From positions 34,276 to 98,275 of IMG/VR virus record IMGVR_UViG_3300046660_000367: a DNA stretch of 64,000 nt; one strand, 5' to 3'. The notes under the pieces are model-generated. The model searched no databases, was not told the origin of the DNA, and worked only from the letters and a program-made list of their open reading frames with translations. Source of the DNA: a virus. The translations under genes and the position numbers were made by a program. Each line of letters starts with the position of its first letter. Position 1 is the first letter of the stretch. Positions 2,027 to 46,590 of the stretch are shown piece after piece.

Positions 2027-2371
2027 TCAGCTGCCAGTTGTAGCCGCGACTTCGGGGAACAGCCAGCCGGGCAAGTGGTTCTGTTCATACACCATCGCCA
2101 CGTCAACCAGCGCATCGAGCAGCGCTTCCTCGGCTGGCGTGAGCGCAGCTTCGGGCAGGTCCATCAGCTCACTGATCTCGCCCATGATGACGTCGTACAG
2201 CGGTGGCAGCGGCAGCGCATTGGCGTCATCTGGTCGGCGCAGGCTGCGCGCACGCCGGGCCGCCGGCGCCTTCGCGGCCGTCAGCTCGGCGATTTTGCTC
2301 TCGGCCGCCTGCAGCGCGGCCAGCGCCTCGATGTGGGATAGCTCGCACAGTGGCTTCGGCGTATTAGTCAA
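2027..2371 (-). CDS. protein whose C-terminal half resembles the N-terminal domain of HigA-type antitoxins, with no HTH
   Basis: YDVIMGEISELMD...TPAEEALLDALVDVAMVYEQNHLP pattern. Confidence 0.5.
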   Translation of the reverse strand: MTNTPKPLCELSHIEALAALQAAESKIAELTAAKAPAARRARSLRRPDDANALPLPPLYDVIMGEISELMDLPEAALTPAEEALLDALVDVAMVYEQNHLPGWLFPEVAATTGS

Positions 2372-2676
2372 GGCGCCGTTCTCCTAATTAGGAACTGCGT
2401 GCGGTCCTGGTCCTTCAGCCAGATCGGCGGGGCGCCCTGGCCGGTCCAGGTCTTGCCGGTGAGCGGGTCAGCGTACAGTGCTTCCTTTTTCGGCCGAATA
2501 CGCACCGGCGGTTTCAGCACCAGGCCGAGGTCGGTGGCGCCGATGCTGTAGTCGGCCATCATGGTCTTGATCTGCGCGATGGCGTCACCGCGCCCCTCCA
2601 TAATGAGCAGGGCGGCGCGCGCTTGCAGGTCGGCGATCTGTTTCTGAATTTGTTGTACTTCGCTCACGGTACTCAT
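2368..2676 (-). CDS. H-NS family nucleoid protein (betaproteobacterial type) with altered AT-hook
   Basis: N-terminal coiled coil; AIAQIKTMMADYSI..TDL; YADPLTGKTWTGQGAPPIWL. Confidence 0.8.
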   Translation of the reverse strand: MSTVSEVQQIQKQIADLQARAALLIMEGRGDAIAQIKTMMADYSIGATDLGLVLKPPVRIRPKKEALYADPLTGKTWTGQGAPPIWLKDQDRTQFLIRRTAP

Positions 2677-3006: not shown

Positions 3007-3255
3007 TTAGTGTTTGGCGGCGTGCCGTTGCCGCAGCTTATCGAGCTTGCCCGAGGACACCTCGAATCCGTCGCCGAAGGCGCTCAGGTATTGTTGGAAC
3101 GTCGCCTCATCGGGTAGGTTATTGTGCACAATCTGGCTGATGGCCAGCCCGCCAGCGATGTAGCCGAATACATGCATCGAATCTAGCGGGGGCAGCTCCA
3201 AGTGTTTCGCCAGTTCGGCAATCGCGCGCAGGAAGGCCGCTTGTTTCTCGTTCAT
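3007..3255 (-). CDS. hypothetical protein
   Basis: MNEKQAAF start with SD, coupled to neighbouring genes. Confidence 0.55.
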   Translation of the reverse strand: MNEKQAAFLRAIAELAKHLELPPLDSMHVFGYIAGGLAISQIVHNNLPDEATFQQYLSAFGDGFEVSSGKLDKLRQRHAAKH

Positions 3256-3584
3256 GGCAGCGTCCTTTGTATGGTTTCCCACAGCGCACACGCGGCTTGC
3301 GCGGCCTGGCGCCGGGACATGCCGGGCGGGTCTTCTTCGGTGCCGCCGAAGCAGCTGCAGCGCCGCAGCTGGTGGCCAACTGAACCGATCACGCCGCGCA
3401 TGCGGCACTCGTAATGGGTCACCTGGTCGGCACCATCGATGGTGCCGATGTCGCCCTCGGCGATCGCTTCCCCGCACAGCAGGCAGGCCTGCCCAATCGG
3501 CGGTGCGACCTGGCGTTCGTAGTCCTTCATCATGTGGGCCGGGCCGAAGAAGCCGATGGCGAAAGGGAAATCGTCGTCGCTCAT
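3252..3584 (-). CDS. hypothetical Cys/His-rich protein
   Basis: CLLC...HYEC...CSC motifs, coupled ORF. Confidence 0.55.
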   Translation of the reverse strand: MSDDDFPFAIGFFGPAHMMKDYERQVAPPIGQACLLCGEAIAEGDIGTIDGADQVTHYECRMRGVIGSVGHQLRRCSCFGGTEEDPPGMSRRQAAQAACALWETIQRTLP

Positions 3585-3814
3585 GGGAATTTCCTGGTGA
3601 AGGTGGCGCTGCGGCGGTAGCACTTGGCGCTGCTGTCGTACTCCATGTTGGCTGGCGCCGCCTGTTGATAATGGCTGATATCGTAGCTGGCCTGCGGCGT
3701 CGAAATGCCGTAGAAGTCCTCGATGACGACGCGGTTGAGGGTGCCGTAGTAGTCGAGGACCATGTCGATGAAGCGCAGGCGCGCAAGCTGCGCCGCGTTG
3801 TTCGGGCCGGTCAT
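3581..3814 (-). CDS. stand-alone winged-HTH resembling the N-terminus of CapW/BrxR WYL-family repressors
   Basis: RLRFID...GTLNR..I...YGISTPQASYDI..Y...AP.NMEYD...KCY. Confidence 0.7.
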   Translation of the reverse strand: MTGPNNAAQLARLRFIDMVLDYYGTLNRVVIEDFYGISTPQASYDISHYQQAAPANMEYDSSAKCYRRSATFTRKFP

Positions 3815-3983
3815 GGCGACTCCTTACGTCGGGCGGTCAACGCCCACGCCCACGCGCACACGCCAGCGCAGCCAAGCGAGAACGCGCCGAACAGGTACGA
3901 CCACCAGCCGGCCGGCTTGCACAGGTCGTGGACGGCGCAGGCCAGGTTGAGGACAACACCGACAATGGATAGGCGCTTCACGT

Positions 3984-4250
3984 TCATGGCAGCTTTCCCC
4001 GCGCCGGCACGTACCGCCGTATCTGCGCCAAGCTGATGCCGCAGTGTTCGATCATGGCCAGCTGTACGGTTGCGCCAAGATGGAGGTGGCCGTTGCGGAT
4101 TTTACTGAGTCCCGGCCGGGAAATGCGCAGGGTCGCCGCCAGCATCGCATCGTTCTGCGCGCAGGTTTGCACGATGACAAAATCGAGCAGGGCGTTGTTC
4201 GCTATGCGCTGGTGATCGGTGACGATGGCGGCTTCGTTCATGCTGCTCAT
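3984..4250 (-). CDS. small HTH protein of a family common in Oxalobacteraceae (paralog of 11241-11474)
   Basis: NALLD...NDAMLAATLRISRPGLSKIRNGHL.LGA. Confidence 0.65.
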   Translation of the reverse strand: MSSMNEAAIVTDHQRIANNALLDFVIVQTCAQNDAMLAATLRISRPGLSKIRNGHLHLGATVQLAMIEHCGISLAQIRRYVPARGKLP

Positions 4251-8455: not shown

Positions 8456-8908
8456 TTATTTCTTTTCAGAAGGTTTGTAGTGTTCGGCCAGCAACTTATC
8501 GATGAAGTCGAACAGGCACGCTTCCACCAACTTCTGGTGTGATTTCATGCGCGGCACGTTGTCCACGATCCACTTCATCTTGGCGTGGGTGACGCCGTCG
8601 AACTTGAGGTTGACGTGCTTGGCGACCTTGCGGTCGGCGTGCTGCCACGGCGGCACGTGCGGCTTCTCCTTGGCCGCTGGCGCGACCTCGGCCGCCTGCG
8701 GTGTGGCTGGCTTTGCCGCCTTCTTGCGTGCCGCTGGCTTGGCCGGCATCGCAGCTGGCGTCTCCGGGGGGGCGACGGGGGCTGCTGGCGGCAACTCGGC
8801 GGCTGCGATGAACTGGTCTTCGGCAGCCTGGCGCGCAGCGGTCGTACCGGCGATCGGCAGCGGCTGGCGAAACTTCTTCACGGCCACGGTCTTTGCCGGC
8901 GCGGTCAT
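8456..8908 (-). CDS. ParA partner / centromere-binding protein (type Ib, RHH-like C-terminus)
   Basis: directly downstream of parA; disordered Ala/Pro N-terminus then PPW...VNLKFD...KMKWI. Confidence 0.6.
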   Translation of the reverse strand: MTAPAKTVAVKKFRQPLPIAGTTAARQAAEDQFIAAAELPPAAPVAPPETPAAMPAKPAARKKAAKPATPQAAEVAPAAKEKPHVPPWQHADRKVAKHVNLKFDGVTHAKMKWIVDNVPRMKSHQKLVEACLFDFIDKLLAEHYKPSEKK

Positions 8909-9573
8909 GATGCCACCCGCTCGTCTACCCACACTTCGGCTGCCAGCGCCGCCATTTCTGCCACGGCCTTGTCGTCGGTTTCGGCGCGCGGGTACTCGCT
9001 GGTGGCGCGGCCGTCGCGGGCGCAGCGGCGGTAGGCCTTGCGCGAATGGACTTCGGTGGCCAGGATCGTGTAGTTCTGCATGTCGGCCAGCGCTTCACGC
9101 ATTTCCGCCACGTCCTGCTGCTGGGCGTTGGTGGGGGCGCAGTTGACCAGCAACACGGCGGCGAGGCCTTCGTTGATGGTGCGCACCTCGCCCACCAGCC
9201 TATCCATGGTGAAGGTCGAGAAGATATCGAACTGCGACGGTTCGCAGGGCGTGACGATCAGGTCCGCTACCATCATCGCGGCGCGCAGCTCGATCGAGTC
9301 CTGGCCACCGGCGTCGATGACGATGTGGTCGTATTTGTCCTTGAGGGCGCGCACTTCCTCCTTGAGCGACTTGCCGCGCAGGCCGATGCAGGTGATCGCC
9401 GGCAGAATGCCTTCCTCGCGCCGCGCTGCCGCCCATTGCTGCGCCGATCCCTGCTTGTCGGTGTCGATCAGCAGCACGTCCTTGCCCTGAGCCGCGCACG
9501 ATACCACCAGGTTGACCGCGATCGTGCTTTTGCCGACCCCGCCCTTTTCCGCTCCTACCACGACGATTGCCAT
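8905..9573 (-). CDS. parA: ParA family partition ATPase (short type Ib)
   Basis: deviant Walker A EKGGVGKST, LLIDTDKQGS, IVIDAGG, PCEPSQFD; no N-terminal HTH. Confidence 0.92.
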   Translation of the reverse strand: MAIVVVGAEKGGVGKSTIAVNLVVSCAAQGKDVLLIDTDKQGSAQQWAAARREEGILPAITCIGLRGKSLKEEVRALKDKYDHIVIDAGGQDSIELRAAMMVADLIVTPCEPSQFDIFSTFTMDRLVGEVRTINEGLAAVLLVNCAPTNAQQQDVAEMREALADMQNYTILATEVHSRKAYRRCARDGRATSEYPRAETDDKAVAEMAALAAEVWVDERVAS

Positions 9574-9599
9574 ACCGCCCCCTTGTTTAATGTGATGAC

Positions 9600-10065
9600 A
9601 AAAAGGAAGTATCTCATACGAATATGTGCAATGCAATGCTAATCATACAAATGTCGATCTGTATTGATAGGCATTAATCCACATAAGATAGGTTAAATTA
9701 GATTAATAGCAATTAAGTTAATGCTGAATACAATAAGTCACAGTTAATCGGCATTAATCTCATTAATGCCGATGAATATCATTTTAAATAAATTGGACCG
9801 ATATAAGACAACATAATTTTAATTAGCATTGCATTTATTGCATTAGTTTAATGTAAGTCTAATTTAATTGGTGCTGATCTATAGTAAACAACATAAGCTA
9901 ACATTATGCACTCCAACATAAATGTAATTGGTGTTGATAAGCACTAATTAGATTAAATTTAATTTGTGCAAATTTGATCAAAGTTAATCAGTGCTGATTA
10001 CAATTGCACAAACTTATACTTGTATGTGCAACTTTGTGCTATTTTGTGCAAAAAGTTGCACTAAT
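9600..10065. promoter_or_regulatory. very AT-rich non-coding tract with about 10-bp periodic TAA/TTAA motifs; candidate centromere and par promoter
   Basis: gcattaatcc acataagata ggttaaatta gattaatagc aattaagtta ... continuing for more than 300 bp upstream of parA. Confidence 0.6.
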
Positions 10066-15212: not shown

Positions 15213-15857
15213 TCAGGCGAAGGTACTCTGCGCCACGATCACCCGGCCGAGGACCGGCGGCAGCTGGTCCGGCTGGTAGGTTTCGGGCGCTGTCGCCGGC
15301 TGGTCGGTGCGCAACTCGATGCTGCCGTCGGCGCGCATGAACACGCGCCGCACCAGCAGGCCGTGGGCCGTTTGGAACACGTAGATTTTTGACGACACCA
15401 GCGTCTTGTCGGCGGCATGGACGAGCAGCTGGTTTCCCAAGGACATGCTGCTGTCATTGGAGATAACGACCACGCAGTCGCTTGCGCGAGCGCCCAGGTC
15501 GGTCAGCAAATCCTTGCGATACGCATACGTATCCTTGCCGTCAAGGTGATCGACGACCTCATCATGGTAGTTCACGGTGGGACCCTTTTTGAACGCCTCT
15601 GCATACCGGGGTATGAAGGCATATTTATCGTTGGGGTCCACGTTAGCACTAATTCCAAGGGTCAAGTATTCGACCGTCGTTTTTAATGCGTCGGCGACTT
15701 TTTTTGTGAGGTGGCGGCGTGGCGCTGTGCCTTTTTGGTCTTCCGGCAGCTCCCACAGCAGCACCGTTTGACGCGAGACACCGACCGTGTCGGCCAACTC
15801 CTGGGGCGACAGCTTGAGTTCCAAGCGGCGCTCTTTAATTCTCGAATGTATGTCCAT
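15213..15857 (-). CDS. cI: CI-like repressor (XRE HTH plus degenerate S24 domain)
   Basis: RIKERRLELKLSPQELADTVGVSRQTVLLWE; C-terminal DSSM...LLV...YVF...LLVRRV; divergent from a cro-like gene. Confidence 0.85.
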   Translation of the reverse strand: MDIHSRIKERRLELKLSPQELADTVGVSRQTVLLWELPEDQKGTAPRRHLTKKVADALKTTVEYLTLGISANVDPNDKYAFIPRYAEAFKKGPTVNYHDEVVDHLDGKDTYAYRKDLLTDLGARASDCVVVISNDSSMSLGNQLLVHAADKTLVSSKIYVFQTAHGLLVRRVFMRADGSIELRTDQPATAPETYQPDQLPPVLGRVIVAQSTFA

Positions 15858-15873
15858 GAGACAGCATGGTACT

Positions 15874-15927
15874 ACAAGTCTGTCTTGCGGTTTGAAATAA
15901 TATCTTGCAAGTGCAATGTTATCTTGT
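15874..15927. promoter_or_regulatory. OR-like triple operator
   Basis: CAAGtctgtCTTG 15875, AAATaatatCTTG 15895, CAATgttatCTTG 15914. Confidence 0.7.
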
Positions 15928-15941
15928 CAAAATCAGTCCCT

Positions 15942-16529
15942 ATGATAAAGATATCCAAGCGCATCCAAGACATCATCCGCTCCCGCGAGTGGGTCGCACT
16001 GGACACCGTCGCCAAGCACGCTGGGTCGAAATCGGCCCTCGGCGACCTGTTTGGTGTGAGCTACCAGGCGGTGCAGAGTTGGTACAGGAACCGCGTGCCG
16101 TTGCAGCACTGCCCGATCATGGAGACCATGACACGCGGCGCAGTGCAGTGCGAACAGCTGCGCGCCGATTACAGCAAGCTGTACGAGCGGCCATACCGCA
16201 AGGCGCACAACATTTACCGCGCCGGCGATCCGCCACGCATCTACATCGCCGGCCCGATGACAGGCTACCCGGAGCTGAACCATCCCGCCTTCCACGCCGA
16301 GGCGGCCCGCCTGCGCGCCGCCGGCCTGAACGTGGTCTGCCCAGCCGAGGTCACGCTGGACGGCAATCCCACCTGGTTCGACTACATGCGCGCCGATCTG
16401 CGTCTGATGATGCAGTGCAGCACCATCTGCCTGCTGCCAGGCTGGCGCCGCTCGAAAGGCGCACGCATTGAATACTTCATCGCCAAGTGCCTCGGCTTCG
16501 AGGTGATGGTCGCCGGGGAATTGGCATGA
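15942..16529 (+). CDS. Cro/YdaS-like HTH fused to DUF4406 (nucleoside deoxyribosyltransferase-like) domain
   Basis: GSKSALGDLFGVSYQAVQSW...VP..C..ME..T.GAV.CEQLR.D, then IYIAGPMTG...N.PAF...YMR.DL...LPGW..SKGA.IE. Confidence 0.8.
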   Translation: MIKISKRIQDIIRSREWVALDTVAKHAGSKSALGDLFGVSYQAVQSWYRNRVPLQHCPIMETMTRGAVQCEQLRADYSKLYERPYRKAHNIYRAGDPPRIYIAGPMTGYPELNHPAFHAEAARLRAAGLNVVCPAEVTLDGNPTWFDYMRADLRLMMQCSTICLLPGWRRSKGARIEYFIAKCLGFEVMVAGELA

Positions 16530-16957
16530 AGCGCAGCGGCCCGCTCAAGCGCAGCACCCCGATGCAGCGTAGCCCGATGGCCCCGCCGAAAACGGGTGCG
16601 CCGGCCAAAGGCGCCAAGCCGAAGCGGGCCAAGAAACTGACCTCACACGAGCGCCCGGTCAGCGCCGCCGAGAAGGCGCTGTGGGACCGTATGGCCAGCG
16701 AGATCGGCTGCATCGCCTGCCGCGTGGCCGGCCGCGCCACCAGCGAGTACGTGTCGATCCACCACATTGACGGGCGCACCCGTCCTGGTTGCCACCTGCT
16801 GGTGCTGCCGCTGTGTGCTGGTTGCCACCAGCAGGGCACCGGCAACGACAAGAGCCTGGTCGCGGTGCACCCGAACAAAGCCCGCTTTGAAAAGCTGTAC
16901 GGCAGTCAGCTCGAACTGCTCGACATGATCCACGCTATCCTCGGAATGCAGCCATGA
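16526..16957 (+). CDS. Ref family recombination-enhancement HNH-like nuclease
   Basis: basic N-terminus; GCIAC...SIHHIDGRTRPGCH..VLPLC..CHQ...HP.KARFE..YG. Confidence 0.8.
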   Translation: MKRSGPLKRSTPMQRSPMAPPKTGAPAKGAKPKRAKKLTSHERPVSAAEKALWDRMASEIGCIACRVAGRATSEYVSIHHIDGRTRPGCHLLVLPLCAGCHQQGTGNDKSLVAVHPNKARFEKLYGSQLELLDMIHAILGMQP

Positions 16958-17922
16958 CCGACAACGATTTGCTCGACCCGAACGTCCCACTGCACTGCCT
17001 GCGCCTCGATGGCGGCACGCAGTCGCGCGCTGCCATGGATGACGCCGCGATCGCCGAATACAGCGAGGCGATCCGCCAGGGCGCCACGCTGCCGCCGCTG
17101 ATCGTGTACTACGACAGTGTCGATTTCTGGCTGGCCGACGGTTTCCACCGCTACCACGCCTACCGCGCCGCCGGCGTGGAACAGGTGATGACCGATGTGC
17201 GCACCGGCTCCAAGCGCGACGCAGTGCTGTTTTCGGTCGGCGCCAACGCCGCGCACGGCCTGCGCCGCACCAACGAGGACAAGCGCCGCGCGGTTGAAAC
17301 GTTGCTGGCCGATGCCGAGTGGGCGGCGTGGACTGACGTTGCCATCGCCAAGGCATGCGGTGTTTCGTCGAACTTTGTGGGTGATGTACGCCGTCACATT
17401 AATCCGATTAATGTGACGACATCAGCCGAGCGCACTTACACCACCAAGCACGGCACCACGGCCACGATGAAAACGGCCAACATCGGCAAGGCCAAGCCGG
17501 CAGAGCCGCCCGCTACCGAAGCATCGGACCCCGCCACGGATGCGCCGCCCGATCCGGTCCTGGCCAAGGCTCGTCCTGTAGAAATCCCAGGGCGCTTGGC
17601 CGCCGCCGAACCGGACGGCCCGGCCCCTGCCGAACTGGACGCGCTGCGCGCCGAAAACGCTGCCCTGCTCGCGGAGCTGGACGACCTGAAGGCCGATCTC
17701 GCCGAAACGCTGGCCGACAACGAAATGATGGGGCGCGTGTTCGACGCCGACGACAAGGTCAAGGCCTCGATGGATGAAGCGCGCCGCCAGAAGGCGCTGG
17801 CCGACAACGCCGAGCGCACGTTGGCAGCTCGCTCGCAGGAGTTCAACGAGCGCGCGCGCAATGTTGTGTACTGGAAGAAGCGCGCCGAGAAAGCCGAGCG
17901 CGAGCTGGAAAAGGCGGCCTGA
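16954..17922 (+). CDS. ParB/Srx-like N-terminal domain protein with HTH and coiled coil
   Basis: DGGTQSR...PP.IV.YD...WLADGFHR...N..HGLRRTNEDKR..V...IAK.CGVS. Confidence 0.75.
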   Translation: MTDNDLLDPNVPLHCLRLDGGTQSRAAMDDAAIAEYSEAIRQGATLPPLIVYYDSVDFWLADGFHRYHAYRAAGVEQVMTDVRTGSKRDAVLFSVGANAAHGLRRTNEDKRRAVETLLADAEWAAWTDVAIAKACGVSSNFVGDVRRHINPINVTTSAERTYTTKHGTTATMKTANIGKAKPAEPPATEASDPATDAPPDPVLAKARPVEIPGRLAAAEPDGPAPAELDALRAENAALLAELDDLKADLAETLADNEMMGRVFDADDKVKASMDEARRQKALADNAERTLAARSQEFNERARNVVYWKKRAEKAERELEKAA

Positions 17923-39870: not shown

Positions 39871-39980
39871 GTAGACCTCCATTCGCTGATTGTGCGGGGC
39901 ACATGCACCCGCTAGGTGCAGTATAGACACGCACCCGCAGAGTGCAAGGACAAACACCACTTGCAACACTGGACCACACG

Positions 39981-41597
39981 ATGCTGACACTACCCACTGA
40001 AATCCGCGCCGCGCTGCAGGCCGCGCCGTTCGCCAGGGTGGCCGACTTGTGGGAGTTGGTCGAACGCCAGTACGGCATGCCTGGCAAGGCCTGGCTGGGG
40101 AGGAATGATCGGTTCTACTTGCTGACGCGCCTGCTGCACCGGCTTGATGCGGTGCATCCGTGGCTGTACGCGCGCTGCCGCGAGCTGGAAGCGGCCCCGG
40201 ATGGGCACCTGGACCTCTGGGCGCGCGAGCATTACAAGTCAACCCTTGGGACGTTCGCTGGCATCATCCAGGAGCTACTGATTAACCCTGAGTGCACCAT
40301 CGGGATTTTCAGCCACACCAAGCCGGTCGCCCGCAAGTTCCTACTCCAGATCAAGCAGGAGCTGGAAGCGAACAGGGAGCTGCAAGAGACCTACCCGGAC
40401 GTGCTGTACGCCGACCCGCGCAACGAGTCGTCCAAGTGGTCCGAAGAAAAAGGGATCGTGGTACGCCGCCGCAGCAACCCAAAAGAGGCGTCAGTCGAAG
40501 CACATGGGCTGGTGGATGGCCAGCCAACCGGGGCGCACTTCATGCTGCGCGTATATGACGACGTTGTCACCCGCGAGTCCGTCAGCACGCCGGACCAAGT
40601 GAGCAAGACCACCAGTGCATGGGAGCTGTCCGACAATCTGGGCGCACGCGGCGAGGACGGCAAGACGCGCGCATGGCATTTTGGGACCCGCTACAGTTTT
40701 GCCGACAGCTACAACGACATTCTGGAGCGCGGCGCGCTGATTCCGCGCCTGTTCGCCGCCACCCACAACGGCATGCCCGATGGAGTGCCGGTATTCCTGA
40801 CGCCCGAAGCGTGGGCCGCGAAGAAGCTGGTGCAGGGACCAGCGACGATAGCGTGCCAACAACTGCAAAATCCCGCCGCTGGCAATGAGGCTATGTTCCG
40901 CAAGGAGTGGTTGAGCTTCATCGACATCAGGCCCGCAACCCTGAACGTCTACATCATGGTGGACCCGGCCCACAGCAAAAAGAAGGGATCGGACAACACG
41001 GCGATGGCCGTTGTCGGCATCGACAGCGGCGGCAACAAGTACCTGCTGGACGGCTACCGCCACAAGATGGGCCTACGCGAGCGCTGGGAAGCCCTGCGCG
41101 GCCTGCGCAAGGTGTGGCTCGCACAACCGGGCGTGCAGATGGTGCGCGTCGGATATGAGCGTTACGGGATGCAAGCGGACCTTGAGTATTTCGAGGAACA
41201 GATGCAGCGTGACAAAGACGCATTCGAGATCGCGGAGTTGAACTGGACCAGCGACGGTGCGCAGGCCAAGGACGACAGGGTGCAGCGTTTGCAGCCCGAC
41301 TTCATGGCGCACAAGTTCTTCCTGGCTGCGGTGACGCAGACGGAGACCAGCAACCAACGCCGCATCCGCGAGCAGGGGCAGGCCTTCCGCATCTTCAAGC
41401 CAGTCAGCCGCAGAGATCACGAGGGCAACGTGTATTCGTTGAACAAGGGGTTCCTGGAAGAATTCCTCACGTATCCCTTCAGCGCCAAGAAGGACCTGAT
41501 CGACGCGGTGAGCCGCATCCATGACATGGAGCCGGTGCCGCCAACCCTGATCGACGAACGGATGCTGGAGCCGGAGACCTACGCCGACGGCATGTAA
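39981..41597 (+). CDS. terL: terminase large subunit
   Basis: AREHYKST (Walker A variant), YDDVV (Walker B), GTRY, nuclease VDPA...SD.TA, KDLIDA. Confidence 0.9.
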   Translation: MLTLPTEIRAALQAAPFARVADLWELVERQYGMPGKAWLGRNDRFYLLTRLLHRLDAVHPWLYARCRELEAAPDGHLDLWAREHYKSTLGTFAGIIQELLINPECTIGIFSHTKPVARKFLLQIKQELEANRELQETYPDVLYADPRNESSKWSEEKGIVVRRRSNPKEASVEAHGLVDGQPTGAHFMLRVYDDVVTRESVSTPDQVSKTTSAWELSDNLGARGEDGKTRAWHFGTRYSFADSYNDILERGALIPRLFAATHNGMPDGVPVFLTPEAWAAKKLVQGPATIACQQLQNPAAGNEAMFRKEWLSFIDIRPATLNVYIMVDPAHSKKKGSDNTAMAVVGIDSGGNKYLLDGYRHKMGLRERWEALRGLRKVWLAQPGVQMVRVGYERYGMQADLEYFEEQMQRDKDAFEIAELNWTSDGAQAKDDRVQRLQPDFMAHKFFLAAVTQTETSNQRRIREQGQAFRIFKPVSRRDHEGNVYSLNKGFLEEFLTYPFSAKKDLIDAVSRIHDMEPVPPTLIDERMLEPETYADGM

Positions 41598-43072: not shown

Positions 43073-43429
43073 ATGACACGACTGCTCAACGGCCTGGACG
43101 AAACGGCTGTCACCACCGCCAACGACCACATCATGGCCAAGACCATGGCCGATGCGCTGGTGGCGCACTATCCCGCGCCGCACTTGTGGGCGGTGTCGGC
43201 TGACTCCAAGACCGGGCTGTGCATCATCCGCAACCTGCTGCTGTCGGGGAACATGGGCTTTGTCCTCAAGATTCCCGATATCTACAGCGCCAGTGCGTTC
43301 AAGGCCGATGTGATCCGTGCGGGCGGCGAACTGCTGGAGCGCTACCGCCTGAACGTTGGCCGCTTCAACGAGCAGCAGTACGCGGACCTTAAAACCGACT
43401 TCAAGGGCGAATTCACATTCGACACATGA
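43073..43429 (+). CDS. conserved phage hypothetical protein
   Basis: L..HYP..HLWAV...GGELLERYRL. Confidence 0.65.
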   Translation: MTRLLNGLDETAVTTANDHIMAKTMADALVAHYPAPHLWAVSADSKTGLCIIRNLLLSGNMGFVLKIPDIYSASAFKADVIRAGGELLERYRLNVGRFNEQQYADLKTDFKGEFTFDT

Positions 43430-46400
43430 TGACCACTTCCCCTCCCGACTGGCTGACGCTGGCACGCGATGCCTACACCGCGTCCACGTCCTACTTTGAC
43501 GCTTCGATCCGGCAGCAGATCGAGGCCGACTTGCGCCAGTCGCAGGGGCAGCACCCGGTCGGCTCCAAGTACCTGGCCGACAAGAGCCGGTCGCGCCTGT
43601 TCCGGCCCAAGACGCGCGCCACGATCCGCAAGAATGAAGCGGTGGCCGCCGAAGCCTTCTTTTCGACCAAGGACGTGGTGCAAATCGGCGCGGAGAACGA
43701 CAACGATCCGGTGCAGCAGGCCAGCGCCGCCATGATGTTCGAGCTGCTGCAGTACCGCCTGACCAAGAGCATTCCATGGTTCCTGACCTTGGTGGGCGCG
43801 TACCAGGATGCGCAGACAGTGGGTGTCGTCGCCAGTTACCAGTATTGGGAATACAACGAAAAGAAGAAGCTGGACCGCCCGCAAGTGCGCCTGATCCCGA
43901 TTGAAAACCTACGTTTTGACCCTGGCGCTTCCTGGACCGATCCGGTCGGCACCAGCCCCTATTTGGTCGAGCTGATCCCGATGTACCTGGGCGAGGTCAA
44001 GGCGCGCATGAACACGCCGGACCCGAAGACCGGCGAGGCCAAGTGGAACCTGCTGCCAGACGCCGTCATCATGTCGGCCACCAAGAGCTACGGCGACACC
44101 ATCCGCATGCAGCGCGAAGGCCAGCGCATGGACAGCAAGAGCCAGCAGCAGGCCAACAACGCATTTAACATCGTGTGGGTACATAAAAACATCGTCAGCG
44201 TGGACGACGAGGACTACGTGTACTACACGCTCGGCTGCGAACACCTATTGAGCGAGCCAGTGCCGCTGGACCAGCGCTACTTCCACGGCAAGCGGCCTTA
44301 CGTCATCGGCTCCTGCGTCATCGAGACGCACAAGAACTATCCGTCGTCGGTGCCGCGATTGACACGCGACGTGCAGGCCGAGATCAACGAGGTGGCCAAC
44401 CAGAGGATAGACAACGTCAAGCTGGCGATGAACAAGCGCTACTTCGCACGACGCAACAAACAGGTCGATATCCGCAGCGTCACGCGCAACGTGCCGGGCA
44501 GCGTAACACTGATGCAGGACGTGGACGACGTGAAGGTGGTCGAGTTCAACGACGTGACCGGCAGCAGCTACAAAGAACAGGAAGTTCTCAATCTGGACTT
44601 TGACGACATGGCGGGCGCGTTCTCCGGTTCGTCAGTGCAGTCGAACAGGAAGCTAAATGAAACCGTCGGCGGCATGAAGCTGCTGGACACCAACGCCAAT
44701 CAGGTCAGCGGCTACCAGCTACGCACCTTTGTGGAAACCTGGGTCGAGCCGGTGCTGCGCCAGATCGTGCTGCTAGAACAGTATTACGAGACCGACGAAA
44801 CGCTGGTGGCCTTGTGCGGCGACGCGGCGCAGCTGGCGCAGAAGTTCGGCATCGATCAAGTCACCGACGACATGCTGATGCAGGAATTCAGCTTGAACGT
44901 GAATGTCGGCATGGGCGCGACCAACCCGCAGGACCAAGTGAAACAGTTCATTAGCGGCATGACGGCGCTGCGCGACATGCTGGCCGACGGTTCCCTGATG
45001 AAGCTGGGCCTGAAAGTCGAGGAAGTCATCAAGGAATTGTTCGGCAAGCTGGGCTACAAGGACGGCGGGCGTTTCTTCGACATGAAAAACGAGGACCCGC
45101 AGCTGAAACAGATGCAGGCCACCATCGACCAGCTGCAACAGGCGCTGGACGCCAAGATGGACCCGAAGATCATCGACGCCACGGTGCGCAAGATCGACGC
45201 CGAGATCGCCAGCATGGGCGTCAAGGACAAGGTGCAGAACGCGAACGCGGTCAAGCAGGGCACCGAGGCCCAATTCAGCGCCATGCAGACCGCCGAAGTC
45301 ATCGCCGCCGTGCCTGCTGTCGCACCGATTGCCGACGAGCTGATGCGCGCCGCAGGCTATACGCCACCCACACCGGCAGGCGTGGACCCGAATTTCCCGC
45401 AACCGGGGATCGCCGACCCGAACCTGGGCATCAAGGACGTACAGAACAAGCGCACCGGCATCGGCTTCATGCCGGGCGATGGCAGCGCACCGCCACCGCT
45501 ACCCCCGCCGTCAACCACCTTGCGCCCCGCAGGACCGGCGACACCGGGCGTGGGCGAGCGCCAGGGCATCGAGACCACGCGGCCCGACTCGATTGCGCAA
45601 GCGGCGTTTGCTGACGGCGGCATGATCCGCCCGACCCAGTTCAGCGGCACAGGGGATTACATCAATACCCTGCAAAAGGGCGGCGACTTCATCAACTCCG
45701 ATGGCGAGACGGACAACTTGAACCACTACACCGCAGCGCTGTCGGCGATGGGGCTGGCCCCGAACGCGATCAACAACAGCCCGCTGGCTGATGGGCTGGC
45801 CAATTCCACGTTCAACACCGGAGACATGGATGCCAACAGCGGCATTCAAAGCATGCTGGACGAATCGGCCTTCAACACCGGGCGCCTGGCTGATGGCGGC
45901 CTGATTGGCGACGCGCTCAACAGTTACGATAACTGGTCGCAGAACCACCCAGCCGCCAAGCTGGCCCTTGACGTGCTGCCGGTGACGAATGTCGTCACCT
46001 CGGCCATGGACGTGGCCAACGATCTGCACAAGGGCGAGTATTGGACCGCTGCCGGTGATGCGCTGGGCCTGATCCCCGGCTTCAAGCTGGCCAAGACGGC
46101 GGTCATGCCAAGCAAGATCGCACAAGTGGCCGCACTGGCGTCACAGTACCGCCGCCCGATTGACGCGGCGGTCAATGCGGTGCCTGAGTACATCAGCAAA
46201 CTGCAGCCGCAGCAACATCAATTAGCACTACCGTCATCGCCAACAGACGCATCACCCTACGCCTCCTATGCCGACGGCGGCCTGATCGCCGGGCCGGGCA
46301 GCGGCACCTCTGACTCAATTGCGGCGGTCGCCAATGGCCAGCCGCTGGCCGTGTCCAACGGCGAGTACCACATTCCCGCCGCTGTCGTGTCGGCGCTGGG

Positions 46401-46590
46401 GCGCGACTTCTTCGACAAGCTGGTCGAGCAGTTCCACCAGCCGACTGACGGCACGCACGCGCCAATGCCGGCCAGTGCCGACCCGCTCGCCATGGAGCAG
46501 GGTGACTTCATTGTGCCAGCCGATGTCGTGCAGGCACTGGGCGCCGACTTCTTCGACCATCTGGTGAAACTGTACGGCGGTGCGCAATGA
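43426..46590 (+). CDS. portal protein (podovirus-like) with about 330-aa C-terminal extension
   Basis: RSRLFRPKTR, ENLRFDP, Q.EINE..NQR.DNV, ETVGGM, TFVETWVEP; position after terL. Confidence 0.85.
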   Translation: MMTTSPPDWLTLARDAYTASTSYFDASIRQQIEADLRQSQGQHPVGSKYLADKSRSRLFRPKTRATIRKNEAVAAEAFFSTKDVVQIGAENDNDPVQQASAAMMFELLQYRLTKSIPWFLTLVGAYQDAQTVGVVASYQYWEYNEKKKLDRPQVRLIPIENLRFDPGASWTDPVGTSPYLVELIPMYLGEVKARMNTPDPKTGEAKWNLLPDAVIMSATKSYGDTIRMQREGQRMDSKSQQQANNAFNIVWVHKNIVSVDDEDYVYYTLGCEHLLSEPVPLDQRYFHGKRPYVIGSCVIETHKNYPSSVPRLTRDVQAEINEVANQRIDNVKLAMNKRYFARRNKQVDIRSVTRNVPGSVTLMQDVDDVKVVEFNDVTGSSYKEQEVLNLDFDDMAGAFSGSSVQSNRKLNETVGGMKLLDTNANQVSGYQLRTFVETWVEPVLRQIVLLEQYYETDETLVALCGDAAQLAQKFGIDQVTDDMLMQEFSLNVNVGMGATNPQDQVKQFISGMTALRDMLADGSLMKLGLKVEEVIKELFGKLGYKDGGRFFDMKNEDPQLKQMQATIDQLQQALDAKMDPKIIDATVRKIDAEIASMGVKDKVQNANAVKQGTEAQFSAMQTAEVIAAVPAVAPIADELMRAAGYTPPTPAGVDPNFPQPGIADPNLGIKDVQNKRTGIGFMPGDGSAPPPLPPPSTTLRPAGPATPGVGERQGIETTRPDSIAQAAFADGGMIRPTQFSGTGDYINTLQKGGDFINSDGETDNLNHYTAALSAMGLAPNAINNSPLADGLANSTFNTGDMDANSGIQSMLDESAFNTGRLADGGLIGDALNSYDNWSQNHPAAKLALDVLPVTNVVTSAMDVANDLHKGEYWTAAGDALGLIPGFKLAKTAVMPSKIAQVAALASQYRRPIDAAVNAVPEYISKLQPQQHQLALPSSPTDASPYASYADGGLIAGPGSGTSDSIAAVANGQPLAVSNGEYHIPAAVVSALGRDFFDKLVEQFHQPTDGTHAPMPASADPLAMEQGDFIVPADVVQALGADFFDHLVKLYGGAQ

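Follow-up and report, generated by a model that had tools for sequence, protein, structure and literature searches.

The DNA examined in this study contains a gene for the DNA-binding head alone (WHD_BrxR) of the wHTH-WYL-WCX repressors CapW and BrxR, and its product belongs to an old, mostly virus-borne clade of head-only proteins. Of the transcriptional switches known from anti-phage defence islands, WYL-domain repressors are the commonest. The gene was found on the minus strand at positions 3581..3814 (stop codon included) of a stretch of 64,000 nucleotides, called the window in the following, which corresponds to bases 34276-98275 of a 98,275-bp IMG/VR record. It starts with ATG and encodes a stand-alone winged helix-turn-helix (wHTH) protein of 77 amino acids, which is predicted from its sequence to be a sensor-less, probably dimeric, sequence-specific DNA binder.

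The sequences in the PDB were searched with the 77-aa protein by phmmer. Residues 9-77 of the query matched residues 24-92 of the P. aeruginosa CapW chain (7tb5, E=1.7e-14), and there were further matches to other CapW proteins (S. maltophilia 7tb6, 8.6e-10; 9c5g, 2.3e-8) and to BrxR (7qfz, 1.3e-4; 7t8k, 0.02). A profile derived from 27 short homologs improved the P. aeruginosa CapW match to 1.5e-22. The AlphaFold2 (AF2) model of the protein has a pLDDT of 93.8 and consists of H1-H2-H3 and a two-strand beta wing. The earlier note, which was made from the letters alone, had described the gene as a stand-alone CapW/BrxR-type wHTH without the WYL sensor, and had named the lack of a structural match to the CapW wHTH as what would refute this. 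That comparison was run with Foldseek against the PDB and the match is excellent: the top 13 hits were all CapW/BrxR heads (TMq 0.86-0.92, rmsd 0.5-2.0 Å), and after a clear gap the next fold reached a TMq of only ~0.55. The description is thus borne out by the sequence, AF2 and Foldseek matches. The Pfam family PF26109 is precomputed on the 77-aa protein, and the name given in the ESM Atlas is WHD_BrxR. Scans of the protein with Pfam, PHROGs, PADLOC and NCBIfam gave zero matches, the Pfam set used in the scan being one without PF26109. The head of CapW, a CBASS repressor (7TB5 from P. aeruginosa PA17, 7TB6 from S. maltophilia and 9C5G from R. leguminosarum), is 40-43% identical to the phage protein. 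BrxR, the repressor of BREX and defence islands (7T8K/7T8L from Acinetobacter, 7QFZ from E. fergusonii), has the same head fold (TM 0.88-0.91), but the identity is only 28-29%.

The 77-aa protein ends at the equivalent of residue 92 of P. aeruginosa CapW, ahead of the linker and the WYL domain. The C-terminal WCX domain and the elements of the domain-swapped dimer are absent, as are the helices that follow residue 71 in BrxR and stabilise its dimer core. No remnant of WYL or WCX was detected near the head gene by tblastn with 41 full-length relatives as queries; a weak match to WCX regions at genome positions 2698-2916 was due to chance, with no ORF behind it. In the whole 98,275-bp genome there were zero hits to the Pfam WYL family (PF13280) at E<=10, while control genomes were positive. 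A split sensor, i.e. a separate WYL protein encoded elsewhere in the phage, is therefore ruled out.

The GC content of the genome is 63.7%. As chance ORFs are frequent at a GC content of ~64%, every gene call needs backing. The ORF at 3581-3814 on the minus strand is a real, intact gene: 570 of 1.84 billion representatives matched at E<=1e-3 when searched exhaustively with HMMER, and a syntenic sibling phage (L003, on the same contig as L017) has an intact 77-aa ortholog that is 65% identical, which excludes a chance ORF. That the gene is translated is indicated by three signals. An AAGGAG ribosome-binding site, read directly from the sequence, lies 6 nt 5' of the ATG (3820..3825, minus strand); the stop codon of an upstream hydrophobic ORF of 58 aa (3811..3987, minus strand, 74% identical in the sibling phage) overlaps the start of the head gene (ATGA); and the TGA of the head gene overlaps the likely start, an ATG at 3584, of a downstream Cys-rich ORF of 110 aa (3252..3584, minus strand). 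The Cys-rich protein, which is translationally coupled to the head gene, shows the pattern CxxC ... HxxC ... CxC and matched no family. Homologs of it were found 3' of head genes in six viral loci, and two distant heads (P0010 and P0011) carry Cys-rich N-terminal extensions.

The head gene belongs to a long operon of small accessory genes that runs leftward and also includes two H-NS-like genes, an XRE HTH gene and a DUF7694 gene. There is no intergenic region upstream that could hold a promoter or operator of its own, the gene being translationally coupled inside the phage operon, and PADLOC detected no defence systems among the adjoining genes. Across viral loci, the start codon lies 1 or 4 nt inside the upstream ORF in about 24 of the 41 loci that could be scored, with short gaps in most of the others, so the head gene is normally an internal member of an operon. 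In contrast, CapW and BrxR genes lead a defence operon or are divergent from it, and have a palindromic operator in their own promoter. Neighbour clustering of 45 loci revealed no universal partner gene of the heads. The DUF7694 gene is separated from the 58-aa ORF by a small HTH gene (window 3984-4250, minus strand; phrog_638, E=4e-4; HTH_3, E=0.08) that is missing from the syntenic sibling, which amounts to an indel of a regulator gene directly beside the head gene.

The origin from a phage, which had also been proposed from the letters, was confirmed by the genome as a whole. The record has direct terminal repeats and was judged complete. It encodes the large terminase TerL (39942-41597), a portal protein (43426-46590) and, as further tailed-phage genes, baseplate-like proteins, tail genes and a helicase. 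A CI-type repressor gene (HTH_3 and peptidase S24; window 15213-15857, minus strand) is divergent from a Cro/YdaS-like gene, which is merged with a DUF4406 domain in the ORF call (window 15711-16529, plus strand), and there are genes for a ParA ATPase (8905-9636) and a weak ParB_N-like protein (16954-17922). With the CI-type repressor/Cro-like pair and ParA together, the phage looks temperate and is probably plasmid-like. A megablast search of 12 kb gave zero matches in cultured phages, and the relatives of TerL are only ~27% identical; the phage thus has no near cultured relative that would point to its host. Burkholderiales plasmids and chromids carry the nearest full-length heads, which is at most a weak hint on the host.

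To judge the DNA-binding capacity of the head, its residues were compared with those characterised in CapW and BrxR. The recognition helix H3 comprises codons 39-52 (3659..3700, minus strand), with S38 just before this span, and the beta-hairpin wing codons 57-68 (3611..3646, minus strand), including K64 and Y66. Residues R28, S38, Q41 and S43 of the head are the conserved counterparts of R32, S42, Q45 and S47 in S. maltophilia CapW, for each of which PMC9122588 describes mutations that abolish DNA binding. Similarly, R12, S38, Q41, K64 and Y66 are identical to the equivalent DNA contacts R11, S37, Q40, K64 and Y66 of Acinetobacter BrxR as given in PMC9122589. In 85 head-only and 43 full-length sequences, the matching DNA-contact positions are 87-100% conserved. 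The residue that reads bases in BrxR, R38 (PMC9122589), is replaced by T39 in the head, a position that is hypervariable in the head-only as well as the full-length group. Such conservation of DNA contacts is expected of any DNA-binding descendant of the CapW/BrxR fold, whatever its target.

The 153 best of the 570 HMMER matches include 48 proteins that stop <=3 residues from the end of the head and 41 full-length proteins (270-330 aa), the remainder being fragment-like. In a maximum-likelihood tree of the heads, a single branch (UFboot 92 / SH-aLRT 88) parts 45 head-only proteins from the whole set of 41 full-length proteins plus three short outliers (P0083, P0136, P0140), which nest in the full-length clade and may be fragments of full-length repressors. 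A quick tree of all 153 rows agrees with this result. The window protein falls among the head-only clade, within the starred groups of the maximum-likelihood tree, and has the hallmark of the clade, a length of 70-82 aa with the ending F-x-R-x-(W/F/Y)-P right after the wing. Its nearest relatives (the sibling ortholog and P0002) are 65-68% identical.

The distribution of the clade was explored in several collections. A degenerate DNA pattern for the recognition-helix motif was run on IMG/VR and gave 45 matches in 44 contigs of 5-315 kb; 43 of these were head-only ORFs with the common end F-x-R-x-(W/F/Y)-P, the other two full-length. The ESM Atlas holds at least 16 clusters with at least 50 head-only proteins of 69-79 aa, every one with WHD_BrxR (PF26109). 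In its head-only clusters the viral share goes up to 83%, while the members of the full-length clusters are all bacterial (100%). Among plasmids, 276 records match, and 22 of the 25 among the matches listed are annotated as WYL-domain proteins; as to the remaining three, the unannotated H16 is a full-length WYL-type protein and the others are named "transcriptional regulator" and "hypothetical protein". In 50,697 records of cultured phages, a head-only gene was found just once, in Stenotrophomonas phage Sonora (gp088, QYW02189.1, "hypothetical protein"). When 185,579 species genomes were scanned for the clade motif, there were two matches, a head-only and a full-length one; these numbers are limited by the pattern and do not represent a frequency. 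Sonora gp088 and the 69-79 aa clusters of the ESM Atlas resemble the window protein in length, C-terminal end, discriminating residues and operon-embedded position. The window protein is therefore a member of a phage head-only WHD_BrxR family, yet it is just 48% identical to Sonora gp088. A further member of interest is P0015 (145 aa, 11 contigs; NCBI, ENA and Logan), in which a CI-type HTH_3 (residues 7-61) is fused to a WHD_BrxR of the head-only type (78-144); the head in this fusion could be a second DNA reader or a dimerisation module.

Head-only and full-length proteins differ systematically on the back of the head. Full-length heads carry W7, E14, R19, an invariant W22, E23, D30 and P74, whereas head-only proteins have Y/A7, R14, L19, a variable residue 22, Y23, A/V30 and R74. 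The clade-specific set was defined as positions 14 (R), 19 (hydrophobic), 22 (not W), 23 (Y), 30 (A/V) and 74 (R), and the window protein matches it with R14, V19, Y22, Y23, V30 and R74. Since the head-only clade is separate and old and its back surface has been remodelled systematically, the protein is not a freshly truncated repressor.

Most of the discriminating residues lie in codons 14-34 (3713..3775, minus strand), the end of H1 and H2, where a homodimer surface was predicted. The homodimer prediction reached an ipSAE of 0.54 compared to 0.24 for the best control, with a pLDDT of 90 and agreement of the runs in 100% of the contacts; the mark set for homodimers was reached by 20 of 30 solved homodimers and by one of 23 monomers. 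The predicted symmetric interface is formed by residues 14-15, 18-19, 22-23, 25, 27, 30 and 33-34. It holds seven of the 12 most family-discriminating positions (mean divergence 0.48 vs 0.16 elsewhere, Mann-Whitney p=6e-5), and the charged fraction at the interface positions is 0.21 in the heads and 0.46 in full-length proteins. The homodimer prediction may have passed because solved CapW/BrxR dimers were memorised by the model. According to PMC9122588 and PMC9122589, dimers of CapW and BrxR are held by linker helices and swapped WYL and WCX domains. From the modelled interface we infer that the head-only lineage may have swapped this lost mode of dimerisation for a direct head-to-head contact. 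The idea put forward in the earlier note that the protein might be a dominant-negative looks unlikely, as the elements that hold the dimer (linker helices, swapped WYL, WCX) are absent and the residues of the predicted self-interface are chemically unlike those of full-length heads.

A comparison of ten genes between the window and the sibling phage was used to assess the rate of evolution. The neighbouring genes are 74-100% identical, and the head gene ranks first among the ten in both dN (0.29) and dN/dS (0.69), a rate of change that is reminiscent of an arms race. Variable DNA-contact positions differ between the orthologs at 39 (T/E), 47 (S/R) and 48 (H/A); the substitutions are not enriched at DNA contacts, with 4 of 12 contact positions and 23 of 65 other positions changed. 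L036, a complete relative of 101 kb, has two different head-only genes in tandem on the plus strand (L036:2235-2453 and L036:2453-2683), which are ATGA-coupled and the second of which is nearly identical to the ortholog of the sibling phage.

It is plausible, if tentative, that the head is a putative signal-blind occupant of host operators of the CapW/BrxR type and has an anti-defence role. The protein would pair with itself via its remodelled, less charged H1/H2 surface, and the dimer would bind a palindrome of ~20 bp like its relatives CapW and BrxR. Without the WYL sensor, single-stranded DNA could not release the head, which would turn it into a signal-blind repressor. If the targets are host operators of the CapW/BrxR class, which is speculative, their occupation would keep WYL-controlled anti-phage and anti-plasmid operons at a basal level when infection or replication of a plasmid prophage would otherwise derepress them. 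A host target is favoured by the specific kinship with defence-associated repressors, by the trans-acting position inside an operon with no promoter or operator of its own, and by the fast evolution and the tandem paralogs. In addition, bioRxiv 10.1101/2025.11.13.688357 reports that WYL derepression raises the BREX dose enough to overwhelm phage counter-defence, and that an anti-plasmid system is controlled by a WYL repressor of its own. Both findings are relevant to a plasmid prophage and give a clear rationale for a host target.

Several observations disfavour a host target. Operators vary among CapW and BrxR proteins, so a mimic needs matched specificity, but the heads form one old clade and hence do not stem from repeated captures from hosts. 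The Sonora head is only ~50% identical to the CapW head of its host species S. maltophilia, which counts against host mimicry. As to the benefit for the phage, PMC9122588 reports for E. coli that CapW-mediated induction is not required for CBASS protection. The fusion of a CI-type HTH to a head in P0015 points to ordinary phage regulation. A more far-reaching form of the host-operator reading, in which a dedicated, fast-evolving phage family of signal-blind heads prevents CBASS, BREX and anti-plasmid systems from being boosted by damage or ssDNA, appears doubtful to us at present. Counter-defence would then hit transcription rather than the defence proteins, and tandem paralogs would cover several operators.

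It could also well be that the head is an accessory transcription factor for the phage's own genes and shares only its ancestry with CapW and BrxR. Small phage HTH proteins mostly regulate phage genes, and a small dimeric wHTH might bind palindromes in the phage genome and, for example, time accessory or maintenance genes. The age of the head-only clade and its spread across phages of 5-315 kb would suit a generic regulator, as would the P0015 fusion and the location of the head gene within a conserved syntenic operon. However, a switch of CI (HTH_3 + S24 peptidase) and a Cro-like protein is already present in the phage at 15.2-16.5 kb, no intergenic operator is found beside the head gene, which is usually translationally coupled inside operons, and the gene evolves faster than its neighbours. 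A palindrome search of the phage genome also found no operator or target DNA for the head protein. The sole recurrent long palindrome has the core CATTAAT-N3-ATTAATG and occurs in two perfect AT-rich copies of 23 and 27 bp, one ~115 bp upstream of parA (window 9749-9771) and one inside the weak ParB_N-like gene (window 17392-17418). It was set aside as a head operator owing to this location and its absence from the sibling 101-kb phage; the copies are probably candidate partition (parS-like) sites.

We consider it improbable that the head acts through protein contacts, as a poison subunit or decoy on the head or WYL surface of host CapW/BrxR, or that it targets another host wHTH-WYL regulon, e.g. 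that of DNA-damage regulators of the DriD/PafBC type. In CapW, each head packs on the WYL domain of the partner as described in PMC9122588, and in principle a free head could take this packing surface. Within the clade, conservation is indeed high in the H1 segment at the N-terminus and in the F-x-R-x-(W/F/Y)-P tail at the C-terminus. However, none of the (near-)invariant back residues of full-length heads (W7, R19, W22 and D30) is preserved in the head-only clade, the window protein included, which argues against kept contacts to WYL or linker. The clear conservation of the DNA-contact residues also speaks against it, and the nearest relatives are the defence-associated CapW and BrxR, not DriD or PafBC. 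Finally, a functionless, decaying fragment of a captured full-length repressor gene, as the three short outliers in the full-length clade may be, is highly improbable in view of the grouping of the window protein in the head-only clade, the intact ortholog of the same length with a dN/dS of 0.69, the ribosome-binding site and coupled translation, the lack of a WYL remnant and the confident fold model.

In the literature searched, we found no description or functional test of head-only phage WHD_BrxR proteins. The domain as such is already catalogued in Pfam (WHD_BrxR), and automatic names exist. New in this work are the link between the clade-defining residues and the predicted self-interface, the comparison of rates with the sibling phage, the count of operon-embedded heads and, for a complete genome, the rejection of a split sensor. 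A phage copy of the DNA-binding head alone, with the DNA contacts kept and the sensor lost, would be a simple way to disable a WYL switch and, if this is true, would establish promoter-directed counter-defence as a new class. The analogy to the viral cas genes treated in bioRxiv 10.1101/2023.06.24.545427 is conceptual only: in both cases a phage has a copy of a part of a host immune component, but the head belongs to a different protein family and would act by a different mechanism. If the heads regulate phage genes instead, they still represent an unstudied family of regulators, related by descent to host immune repressors. Uncultured phages carry the family in abundance, and phage Sonora together with S. 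maltophilia, whose CapW operator has been characterised, provides a tractable entry point.

The two H-NS-like genes in the leftward operon of the head gene are small and neighbour each other (window 2368-2676 and 2673-2915, both on the minus strand). In Pfam, one matches the Histone_HNS C-terminal domain (E=1.3e-6) and the other Histone_HNS_N (E=8.8e-5), and both match phrog_10171. The presence of such an H-NS-like phage silencer pair adjoining the head of a defence repressor is suggestive.
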